Below are positions 3,692 through 60,328 of a stretch of 64,000 nt of DNA, one piece after another. The DNA is from an uncultured Gammaproteobacteria bacterium (GTDB taxonomy: Bacteria > Patescibacteriota > Microgenomatia > JALYQM01): assembly GCA_964403585.1 (NCBI GenBank), contig CAYOFQ010000001.1:712630-776629 (forward strand), written 5' to 3'. Positions within the stretch are counted from its first letter, which is position 1, and each line of letters begins with the position of its first letter. The notes under the pieces were generated by a model. It ran no database searches. It was not told the DNA's origin and saw nothing but the letters and a program-made list of their open reading frames with translations. The translations under genes and the position numbers were made by a program.

Positions 3692-3992
3692 GGCCTTAGG
3701 AAACAGATGGTTAGGTCGGAGTGCTTCGTAAGAAGCACGAAGATCAGGAAAGTCCAGACAGCATAAAGCAAGGGTGCTAAAATTAAATTTTTAGACGCGA
3801 AAGCGCTAGTTAGAGCATCAGAGACAATTAAATTTTCTACTTAAGCTTAGTAGAAGATGGAAGGTGAAAAGGGCAATCCTCCCCGCTGCAATCCTAGACT
3901 GAACCGTTATCAGGTCGCTTGCCGAGGTTCGAATCAGGAGCATTAGATAGATAACCATTAAAACAGAATCTGGCTTACTCGTTTCCTAAGGC
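3692..3992 (+). ncRNA. rnpB: RNase P RNA (bacterial type, compact)
   Basis: The P4 5' strand caGGAAAGTCCagaCagCATAAaGCAaGGGTGCtaa matches the universal AGGAAAGUCCGGGCUCCAUAGGGCAGGGUGCC block. The P4 3' strand ACAGAAtCtGGCTTAc covaries with it (ccaga/tctgg). The terminal P1 pairing is ggccttaggaaac / gtttcctaaggc. Confidence 0.7.
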
Positions 3993-4102
3993 TTTTTTAA
4001 ATCAACACTGCCCAACCCCCAATAATTATTGATTATATTTTATTACAAGAATTCGCGTTCGTGTGGTGTGCACGCTGCGATAGATATTAGTAATTTAAAA
4101 CC

Positions 4103-4197
4103 GCTGTAGCGATTCTTTTCCGTGCGACTTAGGAGAGCATGAAATGCTCGACGCGGAGCGAAGCGGGGAGCAAAGGAAAAAATCGCAAAGAGGTTTT
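4103..4197. repeat. Conserved ~90-nt structured element, copy A (second copy at 52990..53075)
   Basis: The core is gcgat.cttttc.gtgcgact.a + variable hairpin + gc.gAGCGAAGCGGGGAGC.AAAG.AAAA.ATCGCAAA.AGGTTT. The outer stem gcgatNcttttc/gaaaaNatcgc and an internal hairpin are retained with different sequence in the two copies. Confidence 0.5.
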
Positions 4198-4229
4198 AAA
4201 AAGATTAAGAGAATTTAGGAGAAAGTATA

Positions 4230-9585: not shown

Positions 9586-9599
9586 AATATCCCATAGTA

Positions 9600-9628
9600 T
9601 TGACATATAGGTTAAAGTGTGGTAATAT
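9600..9628 (+). promoter_or_regulatory. Consensus sigma70-type promoter (TTGACA-17-TAATAT)
   Basis: TTGACA at 9600-9605, a 17-nt spacer, TAATAT at 9623-9628. Confidence 0.55.
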
Positions 9629-9634
9629 AACACT

Positions 9635-10117
9635 ACCTTAAGAGTAGGTGAACTCAATTTGAGCTCAACTCTGCTCGAGAGGGGTGAGTTTAAGCCCACT
9701 TGCACATTCACACGAGAGGCAGATTACTCCTAATCTACGGAACGGGAAGTAGTCCAACGAAGCTTCTTGTTGAATAAACATCAAACCTCGCCACTATGTA
9801 CCGGCTCCTAAAATAGGAGGAAGGTTAAGGCCTCGCAGACCCTGAGCTCAAACTCAGGCCAATTTGCGTAGGTGTTATCTTCATTTTTCTCGAAATATTT
9901 GTTGTGCTAAGCCAAGGTCGCTTCCTTTTATCCGAAGCTCACCTGAACCGCGGCTTGTAGCCCCGGTTGACTAAATTGCCATCTCGGATTTCCGAGTATC
10001 TTTAGCGACTGAGTCTACAAGCCGCGACTCAAAGTGAGTTTGAAACCCTGCAGAGGTTTCAAGTACGTACTCTGTACGTATCAAGGCTATGTGCATCACT
10101 CATAGGAGGCTTTACTC
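9635..10117 (+). promoter_or_regulatory. Long (~480 nt) highly structured non-coding leader / candidate large ncRNA
   Basis: No ORF longer than about 20 codons on the + strand. Several stems are present: a long-range 12-bp helix cgcggcttgtag/ctacaagccgcg (~9950/~10016) that encloses the hairpin ctcggatttccgag, plus hairpins cctgagctcaaactcagg and tgaaacc..ggtttca. Confidence 0.35.
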
Positions 10118-10372
10118 ATGTCCACGATCATCACAACCACCAACACCCGCCCGCTCAACCCGATCCTGACAGCACGCCAGCAGCTTCCCCGCGAAATTCG
10201 CCTCGGCCAGATTTGCTTTTACGAAGGCACCCTCGCCGAACAGGCCGAGTTTGCGCTGGAGATCCTCGAGAATTTCGAAGCTGCGTACGTTCCGTCGGAC
10301 GAAGGTGATGACTCCGATGTCGTTATGACCTGCGAAGGTGAAATCGATATGGGGCCGTGCCTGAACCTGTAA
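10118..10372 (+). CDS. Small acidic hypothetical protein (84 aa), GC-rich coding
   Basis: Strong RBS aggagg with 8-nt spacing. Codon usage is GC-rich (about 57% by eye) against an AT-richer neighbourhood. No homology recognised. Confidence 0.45.
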   Translation: MSTIITTTNTRPLNPILTARQQLPREIRLGQICFYEGTLAEQAEFALEILENFEAAYVPSDEGDDSDVVMTCEGEIDMGPCLNL

Positions 10373-10472
10373 GCTAGACCGGCAGCGCCGATCTGTTGAG
10401 CTTTGGAGCTCTGCTTCACTGCAATATACAGATCGGCGTCAGCCATCAAACAACAAACAAAGGAGAAAAACA

Positions 10473-10589
10473 ATGAACGATAACAAGATACGAGCAAAAG
10501 AAAAGAAAAATAACTTTAGACGTTTGAGTCTAAACTATATTTACCATTTACTTTTACTTCATATTTCTTTTCCACTCCGCCTCTCGTGA
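10473..10589 (+). CDS. Unannotated 38-codon small ORF (MNDNKIRAKEKKNNFRRLSLNYIYHLLLLHISFPLRLS)
   Basis: Consensus RBS aaaggag 7 nt upstream of the ATG. The N-terminus is basic and the C-terminus hydrophobic. It is below the ORF-track length cutoff. Confidence 0.3.
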   Translation: MNDNKIRAKEKKNNFRRLSLNYIYHLLLLHISFPLRLS

Positions 10590-10663
10590 CTTGTTTCTTA
10601 AATATGATAACTATTGTATTTAAAGAACAGGGTAAATAAATTATAATTTAACTAGGTAAAAAT

Positions 10664-20686: not shown

Positions 20687-23404
20687 CTACTTCTTTTTTC
20701 TCTTTTTATATTCTACAACTCCATTGAGGTCATCTTCGATAATTTCTGTATACGTTTTCATCCAGGTTTCAAATTGTTCGCCATCGATAATTCGCTTTGC
20801 TTTCTTATGGAGCAGCTCGTTCATAATTTCTGTTAAACTTTCCGGACCTTCAATTTCATATTTCTTTAACCCGATCCGGTACGTGTCTTTGGTGCCTAAT
20901 CGCTTAAGTGTTCTAAATGCTTTTTGCAACTCACGGTCGTAATCGGCCAAAGTGGCTTCTGCCCGACAGTAAAGAGACCATGTCTGGATGAGCGGTTCAA
21001 TCGCATTGTAATATTTATCGGTTAGCTTATTTGATTCTTCCACCCCTATACGTTCACTAGGGAACTGTCGAATATTATAAATAAACTCATGCCATAATGT
21101 TGGAACATCTGCAGGTTCAAGTCTGACTCTAAACACCTGATATTTTCCGTCGGGATGATCGGTAATACCTACCACTCCAAGGTTATCGACCATTTTATGA
21201 ATATCGAAATTATCTACTGTCTGGTTACGGGGGCGGGCAGTATCAAAACCTAAAGAGACGAGGTCTTCCATTTTTTCGCGAACCTCACTTTCTGCTATAG
21301 AAGTTGGACATACTGAAACCATTCCTCCGGACTGAGCAATCAGATTGACTGCTCTTTGAAAAGTACGTGCTGGTTTTTCTACCAACCGCTCAGTTGTCAT
21401 TCCAAGTGGAGCTGTGTATAACGCGGTCATAGCCAGTCCACGTCGTGCACGATCAAGCTCTCCGGATGTCTCTCGAATATATCGTTCGTAATATTCTTTA
21501 CCGAACAAATTTGAGTGAAGTAGGGGCAACATCGCAATCACCACCGATTGCAAATTATCATCACGTATATCGGCAGGTTTCCAAAGCGCTTCCCTGGCAT
21601 TGACCAGTAACTGAAAGTCGGTTGTATTATTGGCCATCGCGAGAACTTGTGCCATTACCACCGACTCATTAAATTTATACCGACGTTTTGTCAATTTAGG
21701 AACACCGCCCTCAGGATCCTCTTCGATCTCATCGCGATCAAAGTAAACGCGCGGTATTTCCAAATGCAAATATTCTGTCGCAACTGCCTCCATCAACGGG
21801 TAGTGGCGTGGCGGCAGTTTCTCTTTAGGCGGCAAACCGTTTTGTCGGCGAACTTCAGCATAATCGTGTTCGCCATTAAGAATCTTAGGAAAAGGGGCAA
21901 TGCGTATCGGCTCTTTGGCGTACTGTGCAACGTAATCACGAATTCCTAATGCAGTGTCGACCACATACGGTAGAACTGGTGCACCGTTCCAACGATGATT
22001 AACTTTAAAGTGCACATCGGCGTTCACGGCATTGAAAGTCAGGCACCAATCCGCGTCCGCAGTGTTCCCTAAGGACTGGGGGTCGTGGGTATTCCAGGCT
22101 GACAAATCTTCGTTATCAAAATACTGAGGAAAATGGTGATCGGGAGGCTCCGAGCGGTGATAATTTACTATGTACTGCGGCTTGTTGCGATAAAAAGCAG
22201 CATATAATGGTTGGTCCTTACGGTCATTTGAATAACATTGCCGGTGCAATGCCGCCCGCTGTACTCCGTCGATTTTAAGAAAATGAAATGGTTTAACGCG
22301 AACGAAATCATATATACGATTCATGATTTCCTCTCTGCGTACATCAGGATCTCCAATTTTAAGGAGGCTCTCTACATCGGTGGAGAAGTCAGCACGATAC
22401 TCCTCATCGAGTAAAATGGTCATCCGAAAGCTCTTTTTTGCGTCTTCAAATTCTGCCCGGTCTTTTTCATCTAAATTCGGTTGAGCACTTTGAGCTTCAA
22501 TATAGCGAAGATGATGGTCTATGTGCGCATGGATCAACCCTGCAGTTACTGCTGGAGCTTCTGTTTTTAACATCATCCATTGGTCTTTATCGTGATATCT
22601 AAAACTCCATCGGTATTTAGCAGATTCGGTATCTAACCGTCGGTCAACCTCTTTGCGTAATTCGAACCAGCGGCTTAAATCGTCCAGCCAACCGGCACGC
22701 ATCCCGGCCGAAAAGTTCAGAATGGCAACGTTAACAAAACTGAACGGTTCGCTCGCGCCAGAGCAGAATTCAAGATATTTACGAGCTGCTACACGGCTCG
22801 CTTTGACATCTTCAACAAACTCTTTGGTGTAGTAAAACGGTTTGTTTTCTGACTCAGTGGTATAAAACCACGATACCCCCTCTCGAAGATGTGCATACAA
22901 CACTTTAAGCATCGCAGCTTTGTCCTGCGCCGAAGCTTGACTCGAATAGCTCTCATCAGAAGTAACCGTGTCTATCAATTTTTCATAAGTACTGATAGCC
23001 TCTCCCGGCGAAGTAGCCATATCCAGATGATCAATAGCTTCGACAATGCTTTGTTTTATTTCCGGACGGAGTGCTTCATACGCTAATGCTGTCTGCTGAA
23101 CATTGAGCTGACTTGTGTCCTTCAGCATTTCGGCAATAACGCGCTGGTGCTCAACAACTTGCTGAATACGCTGCGAGGTTGTTTCAAGATCTGTTTCATT
23201 GATGATAGAGGCATCCTTCAACTGTTTAAGGTGCAGGAGCGCCGACCCCCTGATAGTATCAATACTGTGCGAGTCCCGTGCATTTATTAACAAAGTTGCA
23301 CTTAACCATTCAACTTGTTTAGAAGGCGAAAGACCATCCGGTACCTCACCCCGTTTTGCTTCCTGTGCGATCACATCAATTGGCTGTGCTTCAGAATCTG
23401 ACAT
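20687..23404 (-). CDS. large hypothetical protein (905 aa), ORFan
   Basis: Long uninterrupted ORF with native codon usage. No recognisable domain. Confidence 0.55.
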   Translation of the reverse strand: MSDSEAQPIDVIAQEAKRGEVPDGLSPSKQVEWLSATLLINARDSHSIDTIRGSALLHLKQLKDASIINETDLETTSQRIQQVVEHQRVIAEMLKDTSQLNVQQTALAYEALRPEIKQSIVEAIDHLDMATSPGEAISTYEKLIDTVTSDESYSSQASAQDKAAMLKVLYAHLREGVSWFYTTESENKPFYYTKEFVEDVKASRVAARKYLEFCSGASEPFSFVNVAILNFSAGMRAGWLDDLSRWFELRKEVDRRLDTESAKYRWSFRYHDKDQWMMLKTEAPAVTAGLIHAHIDHHLRYIEAQSAQPNLDEKDRAEFEDAKKSFRMTILLDEEYRADFSTDVESLLKIGDPDVRREEIMNRIYDFVRVKPFHFLKIDGVQRAALHRQCYSNDRKDQPLYAAFYRNKPQYIVNYHRSEPPDHHFPQYFDNEDLSAWNTHDPQSLGNTADADWCLTFNAVNADVHFKVNHRWNGAPVLPYVVDTALGIRDYVAQYAKEPIRIAPFPKILNGEHDYAEVRRQNGLPPKEKLPPRHYPLMEAVATEYLHLEIPRVYFDRDEIEEDPEGGVPKLTKRRYKFNESVVMAQVLAMANNTTDFQLLVNAREALWKPADIRDDNLQSVVIAMLPLLHSNLFGKEYYERYIRETSGELDRARRGLAMTALYTAPLGMTTERLVEKPARTFQRAVNLIAQSGGMVSVCPTSIAESEVREKMEDLVSLGFDTARPRNQTVDNFDIHKMVDNLGVVGITDHPDGKYQVFRVRLEPADVPTLWHEFIYNIRQFPSERIGVEESNKLTDKYYNAIEPLIQTWSLYCRAEATLADYDRELQKAFRTLKRLGTKDTYRIGLKKYEIEGPESLTEIMNELLHKKAKRIIDGEQFETWMKTYTEIIEDDLNGVVEYKKRKKK

Positions 23405-23813: not shown

Positions 23814-26297
23814 ATGTCTATCCCAGAATACGGCACTCCTGACATTCGCAAAGAAGCCGAACGCAAGTACGGCAATATCGAAGCTAATCAGAAAGATACA
23901 CTTCGACAAGAATTCTCCTCAATGCTGGAGAAGGTTGACCGCGAAGATCTTCGTCAAACAGTCCTTTGGGACATTCAACATAATGCTGAAGATATCAGCC
24001 GAATGTTACAAAAACTCAACAAATATAAACTTAAAAACGGTGAATCCCATCCACTTGACCTGTGTCTGGTATTGCTTACCGCCGCCGGAGCCGACATGGA
24101 CGGGTTAGAAATACAAAAGAAGGAGCCAGATCCAAGTGAAAAAGTTACCAGCATCGAAGTTCCATTTAAAAATGAGCTATTAAAAATCGAAAATGTTTGG
24201 CAATCGGTAAGAAGATCGCGCGAAAAAGTATTTGATGAATACGGGAATTCTGTGCAGAGAGAGTATCTTATAACTGAGTTTAAATTAAGCGACTGTATTC
24301 GTATCGACACACAGGATAAAAACTTAAGCTCACGGGAGGAATTTTTAGCCAGGGCAATGACGCAATATTTACAGATGCGCTATCAGTGGGACAGCAATAT
24401 CTTTCAGGATAAGAAGTACCAGGTAATTAAGGAATTAAACGATGATGAAACCAAACTTGTAGACAGCGTTTTTGATGAGTTGGATATTAGCAAAAAAGAG
24501 CAGTACAGCTTCGAGGGACTGTCTAAAAAGAATATCGAGAAAAGAGTTGTATTCAATAAGAGTTTGTTCTGGAATAAAGGGCATTCTTCCGAAAGGCGAC
24601 GATATTCCAGTCTCGACAATGTCGTACTTTCTTTAGGTATCGGGCAAATGCTGACACGCGATTCAGTCGTTGTTAACGGGCACCACGGTTGGTGCGGTGA
24701 CCCGGAGGCGATGATGGGGATAGTAGCTCAGACGATGTACAAAGCCAACCGGGCCCTTGCTGCGCAGGAGGGGAGGGGTAAGTATACCAGTGTGGTAGGC
24801 ATTACAGCCGAAAATCTGGGTATAGTCCCAATTCCTGAGGAGAAGCAACTACATAAACGGTTCATGGAAAAATTAAAGCGCCGATTTGGGAAAATTCAAA
24901 ACCCAAACTTGTCGGAAGGTTTTTTCAAAGAATTTCGTTACGCAGAGACTTCCGAGAGGGCTGCTTTTGATCCTGAGACATACGGTCGTGACATGGAGTG
25001 GACAGCCAATCATATTTTCGGATTACTTGGCCAAAAAGATGGAGAAGGGCCTAAAAACTTATGGATCGGGTGGTCGTATGGTGGTGCCGGCGCAGAAGAA
25101 TTCGCAGCACGAATTTTGTCCCGTGTTGAAGATAACTGGATGGATCAAGCTCCAAAACTCTATGCAACTCTCGGTGCAGAGTATCAACGCTGTATTGACC
25201 TTATTAATGATGACAAGTCGACACCCGACCTGCTTAAGCGAACAGCAGTACTGTATCCTGTGTTACGGAAACTGCATCAGGTACTTCAGGATCCGCATTT
25301 GCCCGAGTTCAAAGACTGGCAACATGTCGGTGCTCCTGATCTCATAGTCTTACCACATGCTTCGGCGGTTAATGACACCTGTGATTTTTTAGGGCCAGGG
25401 CGACTGGATGCTTTCCTGAAGAAGTTCGGCGAATTTTCCGCGAGTGCGGGCTCAGGATTTTTGGTAGGCACGGGAACCGGGTTGCATCGTGTTCGGGCGA
25501 CAGGCTTAGCCCCAGTCCGTTGGGCCTTAGAAGGTATTGCCGGTGTCTACACTAAAATGATTCTTTATACAGGCACAATCCAGCCCGAGGAACGGGAAGA
25601 GCTTGATCGCATTGGAAAACGCCACAAAGTAAACTATTCTTCACCAATTAACGGACAGGATGTCGTCGGTGAACAATCCCGGGGATTGCGCCTTTATAAA
25701 GGGAAATCTGAGGAGGCCTCACGATTACTCCGCACTCATCAGCTATTCGTTATGCATGCCATGGGCTATGGTGATTTTTTGGTTAACTTTAAAAAATGGT
25801 CCAATTCTCAAGCCAATTCCGACACTGATATGCTAACCACAGTCGACGATTTCGGTCACAGTATTGTTGCTAAAAAAGAACATAAGGAACGGATGCCGAT
25901 AGACATGTATATTGAAGCTTCAAAGACACAGTTATACGCCTTCCGCGAGAAAATGAAACAATTGGCGGGATTAAACATAGGATTTTCACCGGGAAGAGAC
26001 TTTATTAACGCTGAGGAAACGGATTTATTCGGGCGTTTTGTTGAGAGTAACTGGGATTTGACCCTACGTCATCTCGACGAGCCTACGGTCTTGGCGCGTA
26101 AAGAAATCTATGAGGATGTCGATAAGATCTTTATTAATGATCCGCAGTTGGGCCTTCGGGCGATGCAAGTATTAGAAGAACATGAACCCCACCTGTTTAT
26201 GCCCCGACCATTAAAGCCAACCGATAACCGTGGAGCACTCATGCGTCTGGAAAACATCAGGAGCAAAATTGCCGCTTCGCTATTAAGTGTGATTTAA
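23814..26297 (+). CDS. large hypothetical protein (827 aa), ORFan
   Basis: Long ORF that starts 8 nt after the DUF4258 gene. No recognisable domain. Confidence 0.55.
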   Translation: MSIPEYGTPDIRKEAERKYGNIEANQKDTLRQEFSSMLEKVDREDLRQTVLWDIQHNAEDISRMLQKLNKYKLKNGESHPLDLCLVLLTAAGADMDGLEIQKKEPDPSEKVTSIEVPFKNELLKIENVWQSVRRSREKVFDEYGNSVQREYLITEFKLSDCIRIDTQDKNLSSREEFLARAMTQYLQMRYQWDSNIFQDKKYQVIKELNDDETKLVDSVFDELDISKKEQYSFEGLSKKNIEKRVVFNKSLFWNKGHSSERRRYSSLDNVVLSLGIGQMLTRDSVVVNGHHGWCGDPEAMMGIVAQTMYKANRALAAQEGRGKYTSVVGITAENLGIVPIPEEKQLHKRFMEKLKRRFGKIQNPNLSEGFFKEFRYAETSERAAFDPETYGRDMEWTANHIFGLLGQKDGEGPKNLWIGWSYGGAGAEEFAARILSRVEDNWMDQAPKLYATLGAEYQRCIDLINDDKSTPDLLKRTAVLYPVLRKLHQVLQDPHLPEFKDWQHVGAPDLIVLPHASAVNDTCDFLGPGRLDAFLKKFGEFSASAGSGFLVGTGTGLHRVRATGLAPVRWALEGIAGVYTKMILYTGTIQPEEREELDRIGKRHKVNYSSPINGQDVVGEQSRGLRLYKGKSEEASRLLRTHQLFVMHAMGYGDFLVNFKKWSNSQANSDTDMLTTVDDFGHSIVAKKEHKERMPIDMYIEASKTQLYAFREKMKQLAGLNIGFSPGRDFINAEETDLFGRFVESNWDLTLRHLDEPTVLARKEIYEDVDKIFINDPQLGLRAMQVLEEHEPHLFMPRPLKPTDNRGALMRLENIRSKIAASLLSVI

Positions 26298-33510: not shown

Positions 33511-34524
33511 TTAGTGAATGATAACCGAATTAGAATTACTTGAATTAGTAATAGTCGTTGTCGCCGAACCGGTTGCCGTATTCACATCCCCGCCGGAATT
33601 ATTGCCCGTATTCACAGTATTATTCACCGTTGTTGTCTGTGTTGAAGTATTGCTTTGATTAACCGTAGTTGAGCTGTTGTTGTTTATGATTATGACGTTA
33701 GTAGAACCACTACCGTTTCCGGTATTACCGATTCCTGACGGGCTAGGGTGGAAAGTCGACGATGCTGTTGGGGAGGGAGTGGTGGTAGGATCGGAGGTTG
33801 AAGATGGAGATGGTGAGGCTGTTGCCGAGGAAGTCGGACTTGCTGAGGCAGAAGCTGATGGGCTGGGAGTAAATGTTGCAGTTGAAATTTGAAGATTAAA
33901 AAGCGGCTTGGTTAAATGAAAGTAAGCTAATACTGAATCCGGTGAAATGGATAACCACAATAAAACTCCAACTACCACTCCGATAATTGGTTTATTTTTG
34001 GAAAAATTAAAATTAAGTTTAAAATCAAGTTTTTTCATCTCTCGGATAATTATCCAGCTTTCATGAATAATTATAAGTATCGAAGGCACAAGAATAAAGA
34101 AGAGCAGACCTAAAGGATTTTTAGTTGATTCCTGAAGAAATCCAACATAGGGAAGCGTTAGTACAACTTTCCCGACAATATCGTTTTTGCTTACAGTCTT
34201 TGGATCTATTTCTTTGTTCGCGTCTCCTTTAGTTAGGTAGTAATTATGAGCAAAAATTACTCGGTGGGTTACTAAATTGGATCCGAGACGATAGGTCACG
34301 ATGTCATTTATATAATAATCAGCTTGCGAGAGCACAACCACGGCACTGCCAACACCAATAGCGGGCGTCATTGAACCGGAAACAACGGAGAGTAATTTAA
34401 TTTGAGAAGTGTGAGAGAACTTGGAATACAGCGCCACGACTCCAATCGTAGCAACCACTACTAAAAACACGACACTCATCACTTCATAAGAAGTAAATAG
34501 TAATTTTCTCCAGTTTAGTTTCAT
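33511..34524 (-). CDS. sipW: SipW-type (S26B) signal peptidase I with long C-terminal TM plus Ser/Pro/Thr/Asn-rich extension
   Basis: The SGSMTP catalytic-serine box and the H of VTHRV are characteristic of SipW/archaeal-type SPases. The 337-aa length reflects a low-complexity tail of about 150 aa. Confidence 0.65.
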   Translation of the reverse strand: MKLNWRKLLFTSYEVMSVVFLVVVATIGVVALYSKFSHTSQIKLLSVVSGSMTPAIGVGSAVVVLSQADYYINDIVTYRLGSNLVTHRVIFAHNYYLTKGDANKEIDPKTVSKNDIVGKVVLTLPYVGFLQESTKNPLGLLFFILVPSILIIIHESWIIIREMKKLDFKLNFNFSKNKPIIGVVVGVLLWLSISPDSVLAYFHLTKPLFNLQISTATFTPSPSASASASPTSSATASPSPSSTSDPTTTPSPTASSTFHPSPSGIGNTGNGSGSTNVIIINNNSSTTVNQSNTSTQTTTVNNTVNTGNNSGGDVNTATGSATTTITNSSNSNSVIIH

Positions 34525-42116: not shown

Positions 42117-44399
42117 GTGATAGCTTTTAAACATACCAAAGCACTCCATATACTCCTTGTCACGGTTATCGTAACCAGCCTGCTGGCAGTTATGAGCAAT
42201 TATGGACGTGAATTGAGTTATGGACAAACTATCAATCCTGCCGGTTGTTACACCTATGTTGTTACGGATAAAAATAACTCGAGTGTCAAGTTTATGGCTA
42301 TAAACTTAAATACAAGAGTACTCACTCCTTTGTCAGCAACCTACTCCGGAGATGATATTTTCGAATCCCTTGCTATAGATCCAACCAACAAAGTTCTCTA
42401 TACCGTTTCGTTAAGTGGGTATTCATCTCCCGGTCGACTGTATAAAGTCGATGGTACTACCGGAGCCGTTACATTAGTTGGTAACACCGGCTACACCAGC
42501 GTTTCTGCGCTGTCATTTAAGCCGGATGGCACCCTATGGGGCTGGGATGAAACGAAAGGTTTAATTAGTATTAACAAAACCACTGGTGCTGCAACATTGT
42601 CCTATTCAACTGTCAGGGATTTCGGTGGTATGGCGTGGAACACTGCCGGCACAGTGCTATACTTATCTCTCGAAAATAAGGAATTGTGGACTTATACTCC
42701 TTCCACAAACACACTTTCAAGAATTGCTACCAATCTTCCCTATGAAGGCGACTCATTAGCCATGAGACCCGACGGAGTATTGCTTGGCGGAAACGGTAAC
42801 GGTGGTTCAGGTCAGGTAACCATTTACTCCTACAATACTTCAACTAAGACCTCCAGCAATGTGATCTCGATTGCAAGCGACTACGATGATGTTGAGGATA
42901 TTGCCTGGCCACAGAGCTGCGGAAATCCATATAGCCCAACACCCAGCCCGACACCGAGCCGCACACCAACACCGACACCTACTCCGTCACGAACCCCTAC
43001 ACCTACTCCGACACCCACACCAACGCCTACGCCATCACCGACCCCAACTCCTACGCCTGCCTGTGCTCCGAATTGCTCAACAAAAGAAATCGGTACTATT
43101 AATCCGCTATTCAACACCTTCTCCGCCGACGGTGACAACACCATTGAAATGAATGATCCGGACACCTGGGTTCGCTTAACAATTCAGGGCCCGAGCCCGC
43201 TTGCCTCAAGCAATGTCATTGTCAGTGAACGAATTGATACCACCAACTTTACAATTAACTCGCCCTACCACACCTCAGCGTCAGACTACAGTATTAAAGT
43301 TACCAAGAAGAGCGGTGCCACAGAAAACGATATAACCTGTGCCGATAGTGGCGACGCGGATGCAATACCTGATTGTGTGACCAGGCTCCCAGCCAGCGGA
43401 TCGATTACCGGACTCAATGTTACCTTAACGAATGTTTTAGCTGCCGATGTACATTACATCTACTTTAAAGTGACACCGGTTCGATCGTTAAGTTCTGCGG
43501 AAATTGACAGCAGTACCAGCCAAATTGAATATGTTGGCTTTGGCGCAACCAATCCGAACCGGCTTGTGTCTTTGGATATGCACCAGGTAAACATTAATTC
43601 GGGACCCTCATTCTTCCAGGTATATAATGGCGATGTCTACACCGCATCAACCGATACATCGGTCGCGGTAGAATCGAAACTGCCCCTCAATACTGCTTTT
43701 GACCCAACCAATAAATCCATAATTATCGCCAAAGGCGGCTCCAACTGGGGAAATGGGCGAGTTAATACCAAAGGGTGGGATATCAGCAATTACAATAGAG
43801 TAGACAATAGCGATTTTGATTATGATGTTTATGCAGCACGCTATGCCGAACAAATCAAAGCGGTAGATATAACCAACCTTGGATACGCAGCCCTTACGAC
43901 TTCAGGTTATTATATTGATACGAACGCTACGGCTGCAGGGTATTCATTAACATTAGGGAATACCTGGAGTGGGATAAATATCCAGGGGAAGCAACTTGTA
44001 GTATTTGTACCCGGAGATCTGTTTATCAATAAATCATTTACAATTCAAAAAGACGGATTAAGTTCGATTATCTTTATCGTCAAAGGTAATATCGGAATCG
44101 ATCCGGATGTGACCAAAGTAGAGGGTATGTATATTGCCGAACAGGGGAAAATTGATACATCGTGTCGAGGAACATTTACGCTATCTCTCTGCGCTCCGGA
44201 TAGTACAAATTCATTATCCAACAAACAATTAGCACTCGAAGGGTTTTTCTATTCTGACGACGGTGGATTCAACCTGGATCGTAAGCCAACCTCAACGACC
44301 ACTGCCGGAGAAATATTCACCTTACGCCCGGATCTCTTAATTAATGCCATGACTTCGGTTGGACTGAAGCAATATGCCTGGACAGAAAATGTGCAGTAA
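42117..44399 (+). CDS. large secreted cell-surface protein with Pro-Thr/Pro-Ser repeat linker
   Basis: N-terminal TM/signal anchor. [17 protein letters not shown]... low-complexity linker near residues 270-320. Confidence 0.55.
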
Positions 44400-46506: not shown

Positions 46507-48531
46507 TCAACGCTGAGTACTTTCTAATGTAAACGGAATCGAAGAAATAGATTGCACCCCCGGTTGTTCAAGCCGAATTTCATCCCGGGCGATTACATAC
46601 GGCCGAAGAGGTGGAAATATTCCGAGAAGCCGGGAGGCCTGGTTAACTGAGCGAACCAGCCGGTGTGTTTCGCGCCAGAGCGCATGATTGCGCTTGGAAT
46701 AATCCGGCTCCAGCCACTCATCCGCTACAAAGTTCCCCTGATCATGCAATTGAACGGCCGAATCGTCATTTACGATAATATTCTCAAAGAAGAAGTTGAA
46801 CACTTCCGGAGAAAGCGACTCACGTGTTGTAGCGAGGGCAAGTAGCCCGGCATAGACATCGGCATAGTCTGCCGGACGGTACAAGTTACGGGTATACATA
46901 TGAATAGCATTTTGTACAGCAGCCGGCATTTCCAGCGGATCCGCGTGCAGGCGTGCAACACGCAGTGCCTGTGGATGACTTACACCGACATAGTGTAAAT
47001 CAACAACCTTACCGGTAATGTCTTTGATATCAAGTTTATACACATACGGCAGTCTGACTACCGGGCTGCGTGTGGTTTGTCCGTCCAGTAGAAAATAAAT
47101 ATAACGATCGGTTTTTAACGGCTGATTAATATTATCTACCGCACGAAGTCCCTCCTGTCCAAGTAACCGTAACTGCAATGAATGCGCCTCACGCTGCAGC
47201 TCTTCAAGTTCTGCTGCAGTATACGCGCCCGTGTCCAATTGAGCTCTCCGCATGAGTGTGCCGAGCGAAGTCTCGGAAAGCGATGCAAAAACCTGAGCAG
47301 CAGCTGTTTGTTCCAGCGCATGCGCTTCCTGATTAAGTACCCAAAAACCCGGCACTAGGCGATCGAGATCGTTATGTGGACTGTAATGCGCTACCGAATG
47401 GATTCGGGGCAAAATAAGTTCACGAATATAGTCCTGATCGGCAATAAATTCAGCAGGTGCCTTTCCGTACTCACTTAAAACAGCTGGCAGCCTTCGCTCC
47501 AATTGATGATACTGCGCTTCCATATCCCGTGGTCTGCGCCAGTAAAGAACATCTAGATCGCGAATCCACTCGCGGGGATATGTTCGTACTGCAGTCTGAA
47601 ATACGTTATGATTAAATATTCTCTCACGCAACCGGCGCTTCAAAACAGCCTTGCGCTCTCGATAGTCTTCGAACTGCTCGGCCAGATAGTCGAGATCGAT
47701 TAGGCCATCTTTTAACGTATCACTGTTGATACTTGATGCATCGATCAGCATCTGCTGGGCTTCAGTTAATTCTACTGACGACCGTCCCATACGGTGATAG
47801 GATTCAACTGCCCGTTGGAGGGATACATTTGCAAACGTTTGTAAAAATAGGTTGCCAATAGTTCGGCGGGCCGGTCTGGTTGACTCTCTCCAGGCTAACT
47901 GCAAACTCCGCAGATACCGTACGATAGCCGCAGCTGGCAAAGACGTATCTTGAGAATTGATTTGCAACTCGGGTGAGAGCTGCCTGGTCAGTGTCCGGTA
48001 GGCAAGGTCATGAGTAACCGAAGCACGTACCATCAGCACATAGCCGTTAAAATCATTCTGGTTAAATTCGGACGGACCACCATTTGGTCCGGTATCCTGT
48101 TTGTATCGCTCGGGACGAGTATCCATTTTATCAGCGTCGTACAGGAGTGACGTGGTGAGATGTCGGGGGTCTTTCCACTGCTCTTTTGCTTTACTGTGAT
48201 CCTGAATTGCTTGAACAATGTCGGCGATGTCGTCAGGTGATAACGGTAAGTTAACTGCTTCTCGTTCCAGAATTGCAGTCGTACTTTCAGAGTTACCCAC
48301 TAAACGGTGAAAATCATGCAAGAGCACTGCCACCCTGGCCTTAAACAAATCATGCCGCCGTATTGAGCCCGGTTGTACCTGCTCAAGTGCATCAAGATTA
48401 CCTATAACGGCATCAACGTGCACACGCCCGTGTACACGGTCTGTTTCGGGATAGCGGTCAATAAAGCGCAGGTAAAGGGCCTGAAAAGCCGTTTCATACT
48501 GATGTTCAGAATGTACCGATTCCATAAGCAA
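46507..48531 (-). CDS. large hypothetical protein (674 aa)
   Basis: ORF only. Confidence 0.5.
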   Translation of the reverse strand: MLMESVHSEHQYETAFQALYLRFIDRYPETDRVHGRVHVDAVIGNLDALEQVQPGSIRRHDLFKARVAVLLHDFHRLVGNSESTTAILEREAVNLPLSPDDIADIVQAIQDHSKAKEQWKDPRHLTTSLLYDADKMDTRPERYKQDTGPNGGPSEFNQNDFNGYVLMVRASVTHDLAYRTLTRQLSPELQINSQDTSLPAAAIVRYLRSLQLAWRESTRPARRTIGNLFLQTFANVSLQRAVESYHRMGRSSVELTEAQQMLIDASSINSDTLKDGLIDLDYLAEQFEDYRERKAVLKRRLRERIFNHNVFQTAVRTYPREWIRDLDVLYWRRPRDMEAQYHQLERRLPAVLSEYGKAPAEFIADQDYIRELILPRIHSVAHYSPHNDLDRLVPGFWVLNQEAHALEQTAAAQVFASLSETSLGTLMRRAQLDTGAYTAAELEELQREAHSLQLRLLGQEGLRAVDNINQPLKTDRYIYFLLDGQTTRSPVVRLPYVYKLDIKDITGKVVDLHYVGVSHPQALRVARLHADPLEMPAAVQNAIHMYTRNLYRPADYADVYAGLLALATTRESLSPEVFNFFFENIIVNDDSAVQLHDQGNFVADEWLEPDYSKRNHALWRETHRLVRSVNQASRLLGIFPPLRPYVIARDEIRLEQPGVQSISSIPFTLESTQR

Positions 48532-50356: not shown

Positions 50357-52321
50357 TTATCTAACGTAAAAACTGACCCGATCAACATTTACTTCAAACG
50401 TTGAGCCGGCGGTTTTGTAGTATTGAATTCCGGTATACTTTACTGCGCTTGAAGAAGGTGTATAGACAAACCAGTCGATGTGCGTACCGGCGGCAGCTGC
50501 ACCTAACCATTGACCTGAAATCCAGTTACCGTTGGCATCATATTCGTCCAGGTAATACCCGAACTCTCCGGTACCGGTACCAACTATGACACAGGTTCCG
50601 AAATCATAGGTCTTAGTACTGTCAACCGCGATCAACTTTGTATTTACAAGATGCACGTTGACTGTGTTATTTGCCTTCATAATAATACTTTCCGCTCCGG
50701 AGCAACCTTTCGAATTCGTGTCATAGATTACTGAAGCATCATCGGCTTTCCAGTACAGTGCAAATCCGTTTTCCGCTGCACCCATATTAGAGTTGCGTAC
50801 TAAATTCGTACCAACAGGGCTTGGTGTCGGCACTACGGTCGCTGTGGCGGTAGGAGAAGGAGAAACAGTCACTGTTGGGCTCGGTGAAACGCTCGGTCTC
50901 GGAGTCGCACTGGCACTCGCTGTCGGTGTTACCGATGGCTTTGGTGTGGCACTGGCCGAAGCGGTTGGAGTTGCCGAGGCTGTAGCAGTCGGTGACGCGG
51001 ATTCTGTCGGACTTGGGCTCACTGAAGGAGCCGGTGTTGCACTTGGCGGAGGGGTAACCGTACTGTCAGTGAATACTTTGTACATCTCGACATTATCAAC
51101 ATAGATACGTCCGGATGATCCGGCGGTCATATAAACTTCCAGCATCATGGTTGAAACATTCCATGAGGTCGGCTGGTAGACAAAACCGAATTCATTCACG
51201 TCGTTGCTCTTATTGGTATCGTTATTAAACATACCACGCAACCATTTACCTGAAATCCAGTTACCCTGAGCATCATACTCATCAACATAGAAACCGTATT
51301 CTCCGGTCTTCCATCCCACCTGGTTAACAAAGGCTTTAAATGCGTACGTATCGTTGGCCGACACAGCAATCTTCTTACTGAACAGGTGTACGGCGGTGGA
51401 AGTACCGTTTAAGGCAACCGAACTTTTTGAATTAGGCATAGCACCGTTGGTATTGGTATCGATTTTTACCTGGGTACTATTTTCAGTAGTCCAGCCGGCG
51501 GTCATTCCACTTTCAAAAGAAGAATTATCAAATATATTAGTCTGGTTAACTTTAATCATGTCTTTAACCTGAGACACTTTGATCCCGCTTGATTTAACGT
51601 AATCGGCGATAGACTTAAGGGTACTTTCAGTGACGTCGTATTGATCTGACGCTTTACTTGAAACTACTTCATGGAAAACCAGCACCAGCCAGGTATTAGT
51701 TGCTTTGGCGTGATCAACCCAACCCTTAACTTGAGTTACCGTAGTGGATTTCTCAACAGATTGAACATTGATCATATATCTGTTGTACGGGAAGATATTA
51801 TCGCTTTCACGGTCATGGAAAGGACGATGTGCCTCGAACTGCTTGGCAATTGCCGAAACAACCCGATTATCATAGTCTCCATACGGTGTAGCAAACGAAA
51901 CAGGATTGATACCATGAGAAACTAAATCCTTTTTCGATTGTTCCACTTCATATTTAATTTGAGAGTCTGAGAGCGTACTCATCAACGGATGCGTAACGGA
52001 ATGGCTTCCGATCTCCCAACCGTATTTATTTTGCAAATCCTGAGTTTGAGTCCAGGACATGTAGCCGGATTTACCCATATACCCGGTATTGGCATACATA
52101 ACGCCTTTGATACCGCGGTCTTTAAGTATCGGCATGGCTCTGGTATAGGTGCTGGATAAAGCATCATCAAATGTAAATGATACTGCAGCCTGCGGAGCAT
52201 AAACCTGCGCGGAATACACTTCACTGGCCATAATGCCGGCAAACTGAGCTAAAGCCATCGCAGTACCAACGGCAACTGCGGCGATACGTTTAACTGATTC
52301 TTTGGTAAATGTATTTTTCAT
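50357..52321 (-). CDS. polysaccharide deacetylase (CE4/NodB) with C-terminal carbohydrate-binding-module-like domains and Pro/Thr linker
   Basis: Signal peptide. NodB motifs TFDDALSS and GSHSVTHP. PT-rich linker. Two beta-rich repeats that share a YVDEYDAQGNWISG / YLDEYDANGNWISG block. Confidence 0.75.
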   Translation of the reverse strand: MKNTFTKESVKRIAAVAVGTAMALAQFAGIMASEVYSAQVYAPQAAVSFTFDDALSSTYTRAMPILKDRGIKGVMYANTGYMGKSGYMSWTQTQDLQNKYGWEIGSHSVTHPLMSTLSDSQIKYEVEQSKKDLVSHGINPVSFATPYGDYDNRVVSAIAKQFEAHRPFHDRESDNIFPYNRYMINVQSVEKSTTVTQVKGWVDHAKATNTWLVLVFHEVVSSKASDQYDVTESTLKSIADYVKSSGIKVSQVKDMIKVNQTNIFDNSSFESGMTAGWTTENSTQVKIDTNTNGAMPNSKSSVALNGTSTAVHLFSKKIAVSANDTYAFKAFVNQVGWKTGEYGFYVDEYDAQGNWISGKWLRGMFNNDTNKSNDVNEFGFVYQPTSWNVSTMMLEVYMTAGSSGRIYVDNVEMYKVFTDSTVTPPPSATPAPSVSPSPTESASPTATASATPTASASATPKPSVTPTASASATPRPSVSPSPTVTVSPSPTATATVVPTPSPVGTNLVRNSNMGAAENGFALYWKADDASVIYDTNSKGCSGAESIIMKANNTVNVHLVNTKLIAVDSTKTYDFGTCVIVGTGTGEFGYYLDEYDANGNWISGQWLGAAAAGTHIDWFVYTPSSSAVKYTGIQYYKTAGSTFEVNVDRVSFYVR

Positions 52322-52331
52322 ATGATTTTAT

Positions 52332-52964
52332 TTACGCCTTAGCATTCAGCTGCGTAATCTCCTTAAGCGTAGCTTTAATAATCAGGCGTTTTTCATCAAA
52401 GAAACCATTACAGGTAATAAGCGTTAACTCACGACCTTCGCCTGGCTTCATAACCTCTACATTTTTCGGGTTAGTGGTACTAATTTCACTTACTTCATAG
52501 GTAAACTGGTAGGTTGAGGTTTGTACATATACCAGATCTCCCTTTTTAAGCTGAGACATTGGCCGGAAAGCATCCGGCTTATTATGACCAAAAAGTACAC
52601 TGTTTCCGACATCACCATTAAACGGAGATGTTTCTTCAGCAAAGTTTGCAACACCTTCATCAACCGCCCAGGTACCGTTCTGCATCGGTTGTGACACAAT
52701 CGGTAATCCAAGCGTTAGGGAAGGAATAACTAACCGCTTCGGTTTGCCCGGCTCATCAATCTTTTGAAACGGGACGGATTTAATCGTCTCATTCGACTGT
52801 TTCTCCACAACAACATCTACAGTTTTTGGCTGAGACGCCTGCATGAACGGAGCCGCAAATGACCGTACCTGCCAAAAAACAAGTACCGTTGCGAAAACCG
52901 TAACGAGTATGGCCGGTTTCGAGGCCTTAACAAAAGATAATGAGCGGGCAATAGTGTTTTTCAT
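52332..52964 (-). CDS. sortase family transpeptidase
   Basis: N-terminal TM anchor. LFGHN and TLITC catalytic Cys motif. Confidence 0.8.
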   Translation of the reverse strand: MKNTIARSLSFVKASKPAILVTVFATVLVFWQVRSFAAPFMQASQPKTVDVVVEKQSNETIKSVPFQKIDEPGKPKRLVIPSLTLGLPIVSQPMQNGTWAVDEGVANFAEETSPFNGDVGNSVLFGHNKPDAFRPMSQLKKGDLVYVQTSTYQFTYEVSEISTTNPKNVEVMKPGEGRELTLITCNGFFDEKRLIIKATLKEITQLNAKA

Positions 52965-52989
52965 ATAACCTTTTTATATTTAAACCGAT

Positions 52990-53075
52990 GCTGCGATGCT
53001 TTTCTGTGCGACTAAGCCAGGTAATCCTGGCGCAGAGCGAAGCGGGGAGCTAAAGAAAAGATCGCAAATAGGTTT
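52990..53075. repeat. Conserved ~90-nt structured element, copy B (see 4103..4197)
   Basis: Same core as copy A. The variable hairpin is ccagg-taat-cctgg instead of gagcat-gaa-atgctc. Confidence 0.5.
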
Positions 53076-53086
53076 AAATTCATATA

Positions 53087-57783: not shown

Positions 57784-58249
57784 ATTTACCTCCGGACACG
57801 TAACAAGACTCTCCTGTAGAAAGAAGAATATGTGTATGTAAAATACTGATTAATTGCACTTTCCGAGGCTCGTTTTGTAATCTGAAGCTTTAACAACTAT
57901 TATTATACCAAAAAGCAATCCTATAGTAAACACCATATGATGCACTACTCACATATATATTGTCTACCATCCAATCAGATATGTCCACTGCGTGTATACC
58001 TAGTAGCGCATAAAGTAATTTTATGATATACTATAGGCCAGTAATATGTTATTACTGTGGATTGAGTTGGTACTCAATTCGGGCCGTTCATTAACAACAA
58101 AAGACAGGATAGGCACAAAAATGCCTATTATGGAATTCTCCCTTAAATTCCTCTCACGCTGTTAAAGTCGAACTAAGTGCTGGACTACGGCTCGAGTATT
58201 TTGTTCGACTTTAATAAGGAAGGAGGTGAAATATACTATGTCTCTAGGA

Positions 58250-58492
58250 ACTAAAACGGGAACTCCGACGAGTTATGACGAGCGAAGCGCACACCCGCTC
58301 ACACACGCAACGTACGACGCTCTGGTCGACAGACTGGGAGCTTTGGCCGTGGCCGAAATGAGCGAGCAGCAGCTCGCCGCACTGGTCGCCGGAGGCGAGC
58401 CGATTGACGAATCTGAAGCAGGCATGCTCAAAGGAGTGGCATCTATGGCCACACTAATGGGCGCCAGCAGTCAGGCGGTCGGCAAGGCGTAG
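58250..58492 (+). CDS. small GC-rich hypothetical ORF (~80 aa) downstream of tRNA-Pro
   Basis: RBS aggaaggagg. A 12-bp inverted repeat lies in the leader. The track's start is GTG, so the ATG at 58250 was used. Confidence 0.3.
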   Translation, partial: TKTGTPTSYDERSAHPLTHATYDALVDRLGALAVAEMSEQQLAALVAGGEPIDESEAGMLKGVASMATLMGASSQAVGKA

Positions 58493-58671
58493 GAGCAAGA
58501 GACAGAAGGGAGAGAGGAACGGCGTAACCATGCCACACTGCGACTCGGTCAGCCGTGCTGACAGTTTCCGCGCTGTGCGTGTGTTGTACCGCTCCTTTTA
58601 CCCTTCTGTCTTTTGTTGTCCCTTTTTTGAAGAATCTCTTGTATAAATGAAGAAATTTAGGAATTAACTTG

Positions 58672-58938: not shown

Positions 58939-60198
58939 TTACATGTTGAAATAGTCCGGTAGACCCCGCGGCATTTGCGGAGAACCGTAAAAGGTCCGCT
59001 GAAAGTGAATTATTTCGTCCGAGCTGAGCTGTTCGACTACTTGACTGATAAAAGACTTGTAACACCCGTAGGTGTACGAGTTCTTGTCAATAAAGTAGAT
59101 CGGTGTGCCGGGAGCTTCTCGACTCATTAAGTCGTTCAGTATTAGTAAAAGTACTGTAGCCCAACCGTCTCCTGCGATATATTGTCCACCTGCTGTGACT
59201 TTGCTGACAGATACGTAGGTGTCGACCCATTCCTCGGCGACGTCTCCGGACTCGCCTTTAATGATATCGCCGTATGCGTATGCGACCCGAGTGTTACTCG
59301 AGCGCTCCCAGATTTCAACCCTGATCTTTTCGCTCGGCCAATCCGAACTGGGGTTCCGAAGAACACGCAACTCAAACAGGTCGTTGTTGAAACCTCCAAA
59401 CCGCTGCATTAACTGGCAAGGATCGTTTGGTGGGGGTGTAGGGAATGAAAGCTCGTCTTCACCAACTTTTTCCCTGCTGGAACCCTCTACCTGTTCGGCG
59501 GCGAGTGACCATTGTCGTGCGTTTGCCCGAACTCGCGACTTAGCGATGTTCTCATGCGGTGAATATGGAGGGATTGTTTGCCCCCACATATCCGCGGTCT
59601 TGAGTGATTCACCGATCTGGTGAATCACGGCATAGGCTATTATACCTACGCCAACCGCCGCGACTGCCACCAGAATTACCGGCGTGCTTGCTGCCAGCAA
59701 GGCTCCCGATACAGCAGCGGCCACAAGGACCGTGCCGATGTAGGCTCCGCCTGGTATTGGAACTCCATTTCCCACGCCAGCAAGATTGAAAGGAATTTGT
59801 TTGAGGTTCGGGTCGTGCACCTTGAATTCAAACAAGTTGCCTTTTCGGGTTGAAGTGGGATTTATGGTTAACGAGTTACCCGAAGATAGGTCAGACGGGT
59901 CAAGCGGAAACACTGGCTGGTTAAGCATCGGCGCCATTTCGCTCGGCGCGTACATGCTTGCCCCATCCTCCATGATGAAAAGAAGGTCGTCCCTCTGGAA
60001 CACTGACCCGTTTGCAAGGGCCGTGCCCCAAAAGACATCCAGACGGACGTACGAATCTCCCTCAGGCCCATCGGCCCAGGGGAGCATGACCTGGTATTGG
60101 TTTGCTTCCGGTTTGGGACTAGCCTGGACCGAAGCACCCATCGACGCGAGCACCAACAGCGCACTCAATGCGAAAATCCAGAATGCCCTATGTTTCAA
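58939..60198 (-). CDS. secreted hypothetical protein with central TM segment (419 aa)
   Basis: Signal peptide. GC-elevated coding. Confidence 0.5.
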   Translation of the reverse strand: MKHRAFWIFALSALLVLASMGASVQASPKPEANQYQVMLPWADGPEGDSYVRLDVFWGTALANGSVFQRDDLLFIMEDGASMYAPSEMAPMLNQPVFPLDPSDLSSGNSLTINPTSTRKGNLFEFKVHDPNLKQIPFNLAGVGNGVPIPGGAYIGTVLVAAAVSGALLAASTPVILVAVAAVGVGIIAYAVIHQIGESLKTADMWGQTIPPYSPHENIAKSRVRANARQWSLAAEQVEGSSREKVGEDELSFPTPPPNDPCQLMQRFGGFNNDLFELRVLRNPSSDWPSEKIRVEIWERSSNTRVAYAYGDIIKGESGDVAEEWVDTYVSVSKVTAGGQYIAGDGWATVLLLILNDLMSREAPGTPIYFIDKNSYTYGCYKSFISQVVEQLSSDEIIHFQRTFYGSPQMPRGLPDYFNM

Positions 60199-60328
60199 AG
60201 TACCATTCTCCTAATGCTGTTAAAGAACCAAACACATCCTATAGTATATCATAATATGATAATCAGATCAATTATTGATACTACGTTGAGAGATTTCTTT
60301 AAGAAAAGATCGAGAGTTTGGCTAAAAT

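Follow-up and report, generated by a model that had tools for sequence, protein, structure and literature searches.

A rare, previously undescribed hairpin repeat in a genome fragment of an uncultured bacterium

A stretch of 64,000 nucleotides (nt) of contig CAYOFQ010000001.1 (assembly GCA_964403585.1, from an uncultured bacterium), referred to below as the window, was found to carry two copies of one intergenic hairpin element. Copy A is located between an RNase P RNA gene and recT, in sense orientation. Copy A begins 104 nt after the end of the RNase P RNA gene and is followed 28 nt downstream by the true recT start. Copy B is located in a GT2/small-transmembrane (TM)/sortase/deacetylase operon, in the gap between the small TM open reading frame (ORF) and the sortase gene, which is where the original prediction, made from the letters of the window, had placed it. 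The operon genes are on the minus strand, and copy B is antisense to them; the strand with the purine-rich core is taken as forward throughout.

The two loci were homologous, with 83% column identity between copy A and copy B in a MAFFT alignment, in agreement with the shared architecture that had been proposed for them. An nhmmer profile of three copies gave E values of 5e-37 and 4e-33 for the two window loci. A covariance model (CM), as suggested in the original prediction, was run over the window and recovered both copies and no others; no third copy was found in the 64 kb even with the CM search filters off. The 15-mer AGCGAAGCGGGGAGC occurred exactly twice in the window, with zero mismatches. 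Both predicted loci were real, and their true extents were slightly larger than first given (Table 1). Reading frames within the element were short and were not conserved among the copies. The spurious start MKCSTRSEAG (position 4139), already recognized as lying inside the element, was located in the apical hairpin of copy A. As single sequences, both strands folded better than shuffled controls, with z of −3.1 to −4.8 as RNA and −3.4 to −6.0 as DNA.

The element folds as a long hairpin with bulges; it has an asymmetric core that does not vary (GTGCGACT ... CGCNGAGCGAAGCGGGGAGC) and, at the apex, a hairpin of variable sequence. The arms formed an interrupted stem of ~28 bp, which was capped by the core and the variable hairpin. 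The RNAalifold structure of the three full copies (copy A, copy B, and the copy L011 described below) showed a long interrupted stem P1, a three-way junction, the variable hairpin P2, and a conserved CGC-NGAGCGAA-GCG hairpin. P1 consisted of a 9-bp outer stem, a small internal loop, a bulged stem of 5–6 bp, and a stem of 6–7 bp, followed at the top by UGC/GCA, tandem G·A pairs, and CU/GG. The variable hairpin was as originally described, with GAGCAT/ATGCTC in copy A and CCAGG/CCTGG in copy B. The ends of the element were terminal inverted repeats (TIRs) of the form TTYAARCC/GGYTTRAA, perfect over 8–9 bp in every copy (TTTAAAACC/GGTTTTAAA, TTTAAACC/GGTTTAAA, TTCAAAACC/GGTTTTGAA, and TTCAAGCC/GGCTTGAA). 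TIRs had been named beforehand as a feature that would indicate a transposable element and speak against the RNA interpretation first offered.

Table 1. Positions in the window of the element, its parts, and the neighboring features.
Feature	Position	Strand	Remarks
Copy A, full element, 107 nt	4094..4200	+	CM 128.8 bits; ends TTTAAAACC...GGTTTTAAA; also in Logan contig L065
Copy A outer stem, 5' arm TTTAAAACC	4094..4102	+	pairs with 4192–4200 (GGTTTTAAA); RNAalifold 1–9 with 99–107
Copy A inner stem, 5' arm GCGATTCTTTTCC	4109..4121	+	pairs with 4175–4186 (GGAAAAAATCGC)
Invariant 5' core GTGCGACT	4122..4129	+	same in copy A, copy B, and L011
Variable apical hairpin P2, copy A	4132..4152	+	G-C, tandem G·A/A·G, then GAGCAT-GAA-ATGCTC
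Near-invariant 3' core CGCGGAGCGAAGCGGGGAGCAAA	4152..4174	+	includes heptamer GCGAAGC
Copy B, full element, 100 nt	52979..53078	+ (forward)	CM 108.3 bits; ends TTTAAACC...GGTTTAAA
Variable hairpin P2, copy B	53017..53030	+	CCAGG-TAAT-CCTGG
Direct repeat TTCATATA (TATATGAA on the minus strand), first copy	53079..53086		adjoins copy B
Direct repeat TTCATATA, second copy	52960..52967		includes sortase ATG (52964–52962); 11 nt from the element
Reduced class A RNase P RNA gene	3700..3989	+	Rfam RF00010, 80.7 bits, E 1.2e-24, gathering score 100
recT, 244 aa	4229..4963	+	Pfam RecT 4.3e-23; exact 244-aa product on record
Sortase gene	52332..52964	-	Pfam Sortase 8.6e-25; ATG 14 nt from copy B
Small membrane ORF, 63 aa	53087..53278	-	called as 63 aa in L057; stop codon 8 nt from copy B

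The third copy, L011, was found in the metagenome-assembled genome (MAG) GCA_964535655.1, between a LOG-like gene and the DeoC gene and antisense to both. This genome is related to the window organism (sortase 78% identical, L10 at least 90%). The proteins of the L011 locus had zero matches in the window, and the locus is therefore not syntenic with the window region. L011 was ~88% identical to copy A, and copy A and copy B were 77% identical. Orthologous genes of the window and the L011 genome had 66–78% nucleotide identity, below the ~88% of the element.

Orthologous loci of the copy B site (B site) were obtained through sortase homologues. In the window (sortase 100%), the spacer contains the full 100-nt element. 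In L059, which belongs to the same MAG as L011 (sortase 78%), there is no spacer, and the stop of the small ORF overlaps the start of the sortase gene (TAATG). The 122-nt spacer of L070 (sortase 75%) contains a divergent homologue of 81 nt, oriented as in the window (CM 23.6 bits, E 3e-5). Its stems are TTCAAGCC/GGCTTGAA and GTTGTTTTCT/AGAAAACAAC, and its core is reduced yet recognizable (GCTG, TGC, and CGGAGC-AAG). L060 (sortase 69%) has an 82-nt spacer with a hairpin that looks unrelated. The 35-nt spacer of L071 (sortase 66%) has kept the outer stem only, as a 19-nt relic, TTAGACC-TAATT-GGTTTAA. The 63-aa small membrane ORF was kept in L059, L060, and L071. Since a B-site copy is common to L070 and L071, the B-site copy is old. 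Depending on the lineage, the B-site element has been cleanly deleted, internally truncated, or kept intact.

Base pairing in the element is clearly under selection, because compensatory substitutions occurred among the copies. RNAalifold gave double compensatory changes in 6–7 of 33–35 predicted pairs, with only three sequences. Copy A and L011 differed at 13 positions. Eight of these formed four compensated pairs (3/105, 21/88, 27/83, and 43/55), three were unpaired, and two were pair-breaking. The probability of at least four compensated pairs by chance was 6.5e-5 in a simulation of 10^6 runs, in which the substitution number and transition bias were as observed for this comparison. Between copy B and L070, P1 had four further compensated double changes, and none of 18 pairs was broken. 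The preservation of stems by compensatory change, as first claimed, thus gained statistical support from the third and fourth copies. In the outer stem, L011 had a compensated T-A to C-G change relative to copy A, and copy B was one base shorter in both arms, a matched difference. In the inner stem, pairs 21/88, 27/83, and 28/82 co-varied among copies. Pair 43/55 of P2 was A-T in copy A and G-C in L011. The base of P2 carried tandem G·A/A·G in copy A and L011, but C-G/C-G in copy B. The covariation claimed at the variable (N) positions of the stem held for copy A (T/A) and the third copy (C/G), but copy B had G/G. The original prediction had also treated covariation as the mark of an RNA that excludes a DNA repeat or a transposable element of the miniature inverted-repeat type (MITE). 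This dichotomy is invalid: the MITE-like bcr1 shows compensatory changes that preserve an RNA-level cruciform (PMC3184786), so covariation is no argument against a MITE-like element.

Conservation began and ended at the hairpin base, and the outside flanks of the three full copies were unrelated. No shared sigma-70-like promoter or terminator was found in the flanks of these copies, and the Shine-Dalgarno sequences were located outside the element. Relative to the neighboring genes, one copy was sense (copy A) and two were antisense (copy B and L011). A start codon was located 14–28 nt past each of the three (recT 4229, sortase 52964, and DeoC at L011 2111). The 8-bp direct repeat TTCATATA flanked copy B; an 8-mer shared between flanks occurs at 0.5% of random window positions. 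The flanks of copy A shared no word of at least 5 nt, and those of L011 shared a 6-mer only (background 8%).

Beyond these loci, the element was searched for with the exact-core pattern GTGCGAC-N(8–38)-GCGAAGCGGGGAGC. Among the GTDB one-per-species genomes (185,579), 26 matches were obtained; only L011 was genuine, and the rest were chance matches in G+C-rich genomes. All 30 matches in JGI metagenomes were by chance, and IMG/VR gave 0 matches. A second viral pattern, GCGAAGCGGGGAGC-N10-ATCGC, gave a single chance match, and blastn of copy A against phage and plasmid collections gave only chance matches of 24–26 nt. A chimeric six-frame translation query for gene calls running through other copies found none among the best 8000 candidates. 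An exhaustive phmmer search with the open forward frame returned only two unrelated repetitive proteins, and a chimeric RecT+DeoC+LOG query returned distant homologues only. Logan contigs that added ~11 kb around the window held no further copy, two ORFs at the window edges had no record, and a full-text literature search with the core sequence returned only an unrelated primer. The exact-core pattern was too strict, in that the differing core of the L070 homologue would escape it; the family is therefore broader than this pattern could detect.

The statement that the element is not a known riboswitch or leader was borne out by Rfam 15. At gathering thresholds, the window gave four tRNAs and nothing else. 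At E ≤ 10, nothing overlapped the element within 401 nt around each window copy, and L011 was also negative. Hammerhead, twister, and other known ribozymes gave no Rfam signal. SRP, 6S, and Y RNA were rejected as well, with no Rfam signal and two divergent paralogues present, and a template repeat of a diversity-generating retroelement was rejected because the differences were not adenine-specific. The element can be described as a rare, previously undescribed hairpin repeat.

With about an even chance of being correct, the element is assigned to the MITE-like repeats, as a low-copy, lineage-restricted, non-autonomous palindromic intergenic repeat of the ERIC/bcr1/Correia kind. Bacterial MITEs are reviewed as elements of less than 200 bp with TIRs that form long RNA stem-loops, are co-transcribed, and affect mRNA stability (PMC3184786). 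The assignment follows from the small size, the perfect TIRs, the unrelated spacers occupied in either orientation, the B-site variants, and the compensated fold. The full copies are 100–107 nt long, well below the ~400 bp taken as the upper size for a MITE, and lack a transposase ORF, and the element is dispersed over three loci in two genomes, with presence and absence between relatives at the B site.

If the element is such a repeat, it would have arrived at its present sites by insertion, mobilized by an enzyme acting in trans. With no promoter of its own, it would be co-transcribed with the neighboring genes, and the transcript would fold into a long bulged duplex. Nucleases such as RNase III or RNase E, which are reported to act on Correia and ERIC elements, could cut this duplex, and the processing could then affect how stable the flanking cistrons are or how they are coupled. 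The invariant core may be the recognition site of a mobilizing or binding factor, or a strand-specific RNA module.

Several observations weigh against the assignment to MITE-like repeats. The copy number is very low for a MITE or a repetitive extragenic palindromic (REP) element: two copies in ~75 kb of the source genome, one in ~49 kb sampled from the L011 genome, and by exact-core pattern one among 185,579 species genomes and none in JGI or IMG/VR. A target-site duplication was absent at copy A and L011, and at copy B the direct repeat stood 1 and 11 nt away from the ends of the hairpin. No transposase, HUH, or Y1_Tnp gene was found among the 47 window ORFs scanned or adjoining the fetched loci, and no parent insertion sequence (IS) is known. 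Conservation is strongest in the asymmetric interior core (8 + ~21 nt, identical in three copies) and not at the termini, as would be expected of a functional RNA or a site of protein binding more than of a plain MITE. Despite its age, the B-site copy retains a perfect core.

These points lead to a possible, if on the whole unlikely, alternative: a strand-specific, novel structured non-coding RNA (ncRNA) that acts in trans or as a self-contained module, with one or two paralogues per genome. Its fold would comprise the long P1 with tandem G·A, the three-way junction, the variable P2, and P3, which is the CGC-NGAGCGAA-GCG hairpin. The unpaired and junction core was 100% identical in three copies while the stems co-varied, and tandem G·A/A·G was found at 33/76 and 34/75 in all copies, as is consistent with an RNA; the replacement of the G·A pairs at the P2 base by two C-G pairs in copy B points the same way. 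The low copy number suits a gene more than a selfish repeat, and between genomes the element was more conserved than coding DNA. The strands were compared in this respect. The consensus fold had −34.1 kcal/mol on the forward strand and −31.8 kcal/mol on the reverse strand. In all copies, the forward strand folded better by 1–6 kcal/mol as RNA and by 2–4 kcal/mol as DNA, and it is the forward strand that carries the G·A motifs. However, the two C·A mismatches of the forward P1 are U·G wobbles on the reverse strand, which favors the latter. Two of the three copies are antisense within gaps of 100–130 nt inside operons, and no Rfam match was obtained. Outside the hairpin there is neither conservation nor a shared promoter or terminator, and the B site is empty in L059, with the core degraded in L070 and deleted in L071, where the outer stem survives. 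An autonomous small RNA gene is weakened by the missing promoter and terminator and by this decay series.

A related suggestion is that the forward strand represents a new compact structured-RNA class with its own biochemical activity, spreading as a mobile module. This is considered doubtful. The module would be formed by the long closing helix, the tandem G·A, the three-way junction, and the 8 + 21-nt core including GAGCGAAGCGGGGAGC. Self-cleavage or specific binding of a protein or ligand might be its activity, and the small-genome lineage that carries it might be similar to the candidate phyla radiation. On this view, the element would be a functional RNA that moves, in contrast to a passive MITE.

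It is improbable that pairing is selected as DNA in a single-stranded (ss) DNA hairpin site. Such a site could serve an HUH/Y1 enzyme (REP/REPIN, IS200/IS605) or a tyrosine recombinase (attC), or have a role in replication or recombination. The core holds the heptamer GCGAAGC, of the GCGNAGC type known as "extraordinarily stable mini-hairpin DNA" (PMC13037366), and a DNA-level structure is therefore conceivable. Both DNA strands folded far better than shuffles (z as given above), and the orientation of the element is independent of transcription. The layout is also similar to that of folded attC and REPIN hairpins. Against this, no integrase, RAYT, IS200-type, or other recombinase gene was found beside the copies or in the scanned window ORFs, and no conserved flanking tetranucleotide of the IS200/IS605 or REP style was found. 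The ends GTTTTAA and GTTTAAA do not fit the attC R' consensus GTTRRRY, and the copies are solitary, 49 kb apart, and not in cassette arrays.

A bidirectional intrinsic terminator or insulator, in which an A-tract, a hairpin, and a T-tract are readable on both strands, is very unlikely. The ends AAAACC...GGTTTT do place a hairpin before a short T-run on each strand, and copy A is downstream of the RNase P RNA gene. However, the terminator scan was negative at both window copies and found only a small hairpin within one arm of L011, and the T-run has only 3–4 nt and is itself paired (criterion, at least 5 T). The next gene begins 14–20 nt after the element at the B and L011 sites, which leaves no promoter room, and termination there would silence sortase/deacetylase or DeoC. 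The lack of both a terminator signature and room for a downstream promoter makes this function unlikely.

A cis-regulatory 5' leader of recT (forward) and/or sortase (reverse), as the original prediction had it, is practically ruled out. The three full copies do all end shortly before a start codon, and copy A is probably in the recT 5' untranslated region, because a T-run follows the upstream RNase P RNA gene, but the neighbors (RNase P RNA/recT, small TM ORF/sortase, and LOG-like/DeoC) are unrelated in function, the orientation of the element to them differs with two of three copies antisense, the Shine-Dalgarno sequences are outside the element, the L059 sortase does without element or spacer (TAATG overlap), and the ~28-bp closing stem is, to our knowledge, unlike ligand-responsive leaders.

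If the assignment to MITE-like repeats is correct, the element represents a new ERIC/bcr1-like repeat family in an uncultured lineage with small genomes that has been little studied and for which few such elements are on record. For annotation, the element generates a false upstream recT start. For evolution, the element illustrates how two translationally coupled genes can be separated by insertion of a hairpin, which turns a TAATG overlap into a 122-nt spacer that carries a new ribosome-binding site. Given the small number of copies, the pattern of compensation is unusually clear, which makes the element a good small test case for RNA- versus DNA-level selection on palindromes. It would be considerably more interesting if the core were an active RNA module.

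Several other features of the window and its relatives were recorded. The RNase P RNA was below the gathering score, so a default Rfam scan misses the gene; the match is still convincing. In its alignment, a 43-position model segment is missing, and the 3' helix before the ACAGAA motif is deleted. The T-run 3' of it, GGCTTTTTT, is located at ~3990–4000. Window region 9591–9908 was 73.6% identical over ~330 nt to L063 18210–18535, in the syntenic gap of the related MAG. The region is inside a 1-kb gene-poor gap (9586–10663) and had no Rfam match at E ≤ 1; ORFs of 84 aa and 38 aa were called in it in Logan contig L065. It could encode a small protein or an unknown RNA. An inverted repeat with 24-nt arms was found at 9944–10031.

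A long intergenic hairpin at 58487–58627 had 27-nt arms with 81% complementarity, 66 nt apart, in an 880-nt gap beside tRNA-Pro. Its Rfam matches were only weak ones to microRNA precursors, as for a generic long hairpin, and its sequence was unrelated to the studied element. A 20-nt inverted repeat (ATTTTATGATATACTATAGG, 95%) was found at 58018–58037 and 60238–60257, 2.2 kb apart. Within it is TGATATACT, which resembles an extended −10 box. One of its copies is ~40 nt upstream of a 419-aa ORF (58939–60198, minus strand), and the other is directed into the gene-free gap that holds the 58487–58627 hairpin. The repeat may be a promoter motif of the lineage.

Degenerate G/T-rich coding repeats of ~36–48 nt were located at 50840–50977, 62821–63015, and 33811–33846, and 12-nt periodic repeats at 42933–43016 (42.9 kb). 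Both kinds were common to several large ORFs (the deacetylase tail, a 760-aa ORF, and others). The repeats are probably low-complexity linkers of surface proteins. Large ORFs of 670–905 aa (for example, 20687–23404, 23814–26297, 42117–44399, and 46507–48531) had no Pfam match at 1e-4. Taken with the 1.57-Mb contig, the envelope genes (sortase and GT2), and the reduced form of RNase P RNA, these ORFs suggest a small-genome uncultured lineage. In view of the gene content, the Gammaproteobacteria label of the related MAG record looks doubtful.

Regions L059 1–4900 and 18149–20300 and L063 18674–20100 border the conserved sortase and SecDF blocks of the related MAG. These carry an RVT_1 reverse transcriptase, AbiEii genes, helix-turn-helix regulators, and a 506-aa serine recombinase, all absent from the window, and look like integrated mobile or defence islands. 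Run SRR8893623 (L067, L069, and L064) contained exact window proteins (MiaA and a YkuD-domain protein) and a contig with the L10 sequence of the L011 MAG. The two organisms with the element seem to live in the same environment.

Among known systems, attC sites are 57–141 nt long and have a terminal stem, an unpaired spacer, a second stem with an extrahelical base, and a variable terminal structure. The element is similar to them in folded layout and size range. Unlike attC sites, it has no GTTRRRY/RYYYAAC boxes, no cassette array, and no intI, and its copies are among core genes 49 kb apart. The REP/REPIN elements are likewise hairpin-forming extragenic repeats. According to Bertels and Rainey (2011), as reported, a REPIN is a hairpin of ~100 nt made of two inverted REPs, with pairing kept by compensatory change. 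REPINs are near-symmetric and lack an asymmetric core such as the 30-nt one found here. The 5' GTAG-type tetranucleotide of REPs is conserved, whereas it varies here (GTAG, GCAG, and GCTG in three copies). The scanned ORFs included no Y1/HUH gene, and the copy number here is far lower.

Correia elements (CREE/NEMIS) of Neisseria are similar to the element in size, in having TIRs and a long hairpin, and, as proposed for the element, in gene-adjacent insertion and co-transcription (PMC3184786). They have 26-bp TIRs, a TA duplication, an integration host factor site, outward promoters, and hundreds of copies, none of which was found here. The long Correia hairpin is said, by De Gregorio et al., to be an RNase III substrate. 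The bcr1 element of the Bacillus cereus group resembles the present one in that its genomic distribution is not conserved between relatives. Its copies, of which a genome can hold tens, are each flanked by 5-bp direct repeats; in contrast, two copies in ~75 kb were found here, with a direct repeat at one of three copies, and the sequences are unrelated.

Reported sizes are 127 bp for ERIC, 104–157 bp for Correia, and ~155 bp for bcr1 (PMC3184786). ERIC has an enterobacterial host, whereas the present element is from an uncultured small-genome bacterium. ERIC-type elements have TA-flanked termini with target duplications; here the terminal positions change together as paired bases (T-A to C-G in L011), and a direct repeat flanks only one of the copies. 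The asymmetric invariant core and the branched top belong to the present element and are a further difference. No sequence similarity to ERIC is apparent, although no direct consensus comparison was made, and the resemblance is functional and architectural only. The facts on ERIC orientation and copy number reportedly go back to Hulton (1991) and Wilson and Sharp (2006). Like ERIC/IRU, the element is an imperfect palindrome of ~100–130 bp that occupies, in both orientations, intergenic spacers that are probably transcribed. Related genomes differ in whether they carry it at the corresponding site, it is well conserved across species, and, as with ERIC, it would form a long RNA stem-loop that could alter mRNA processing (PMC3184786).

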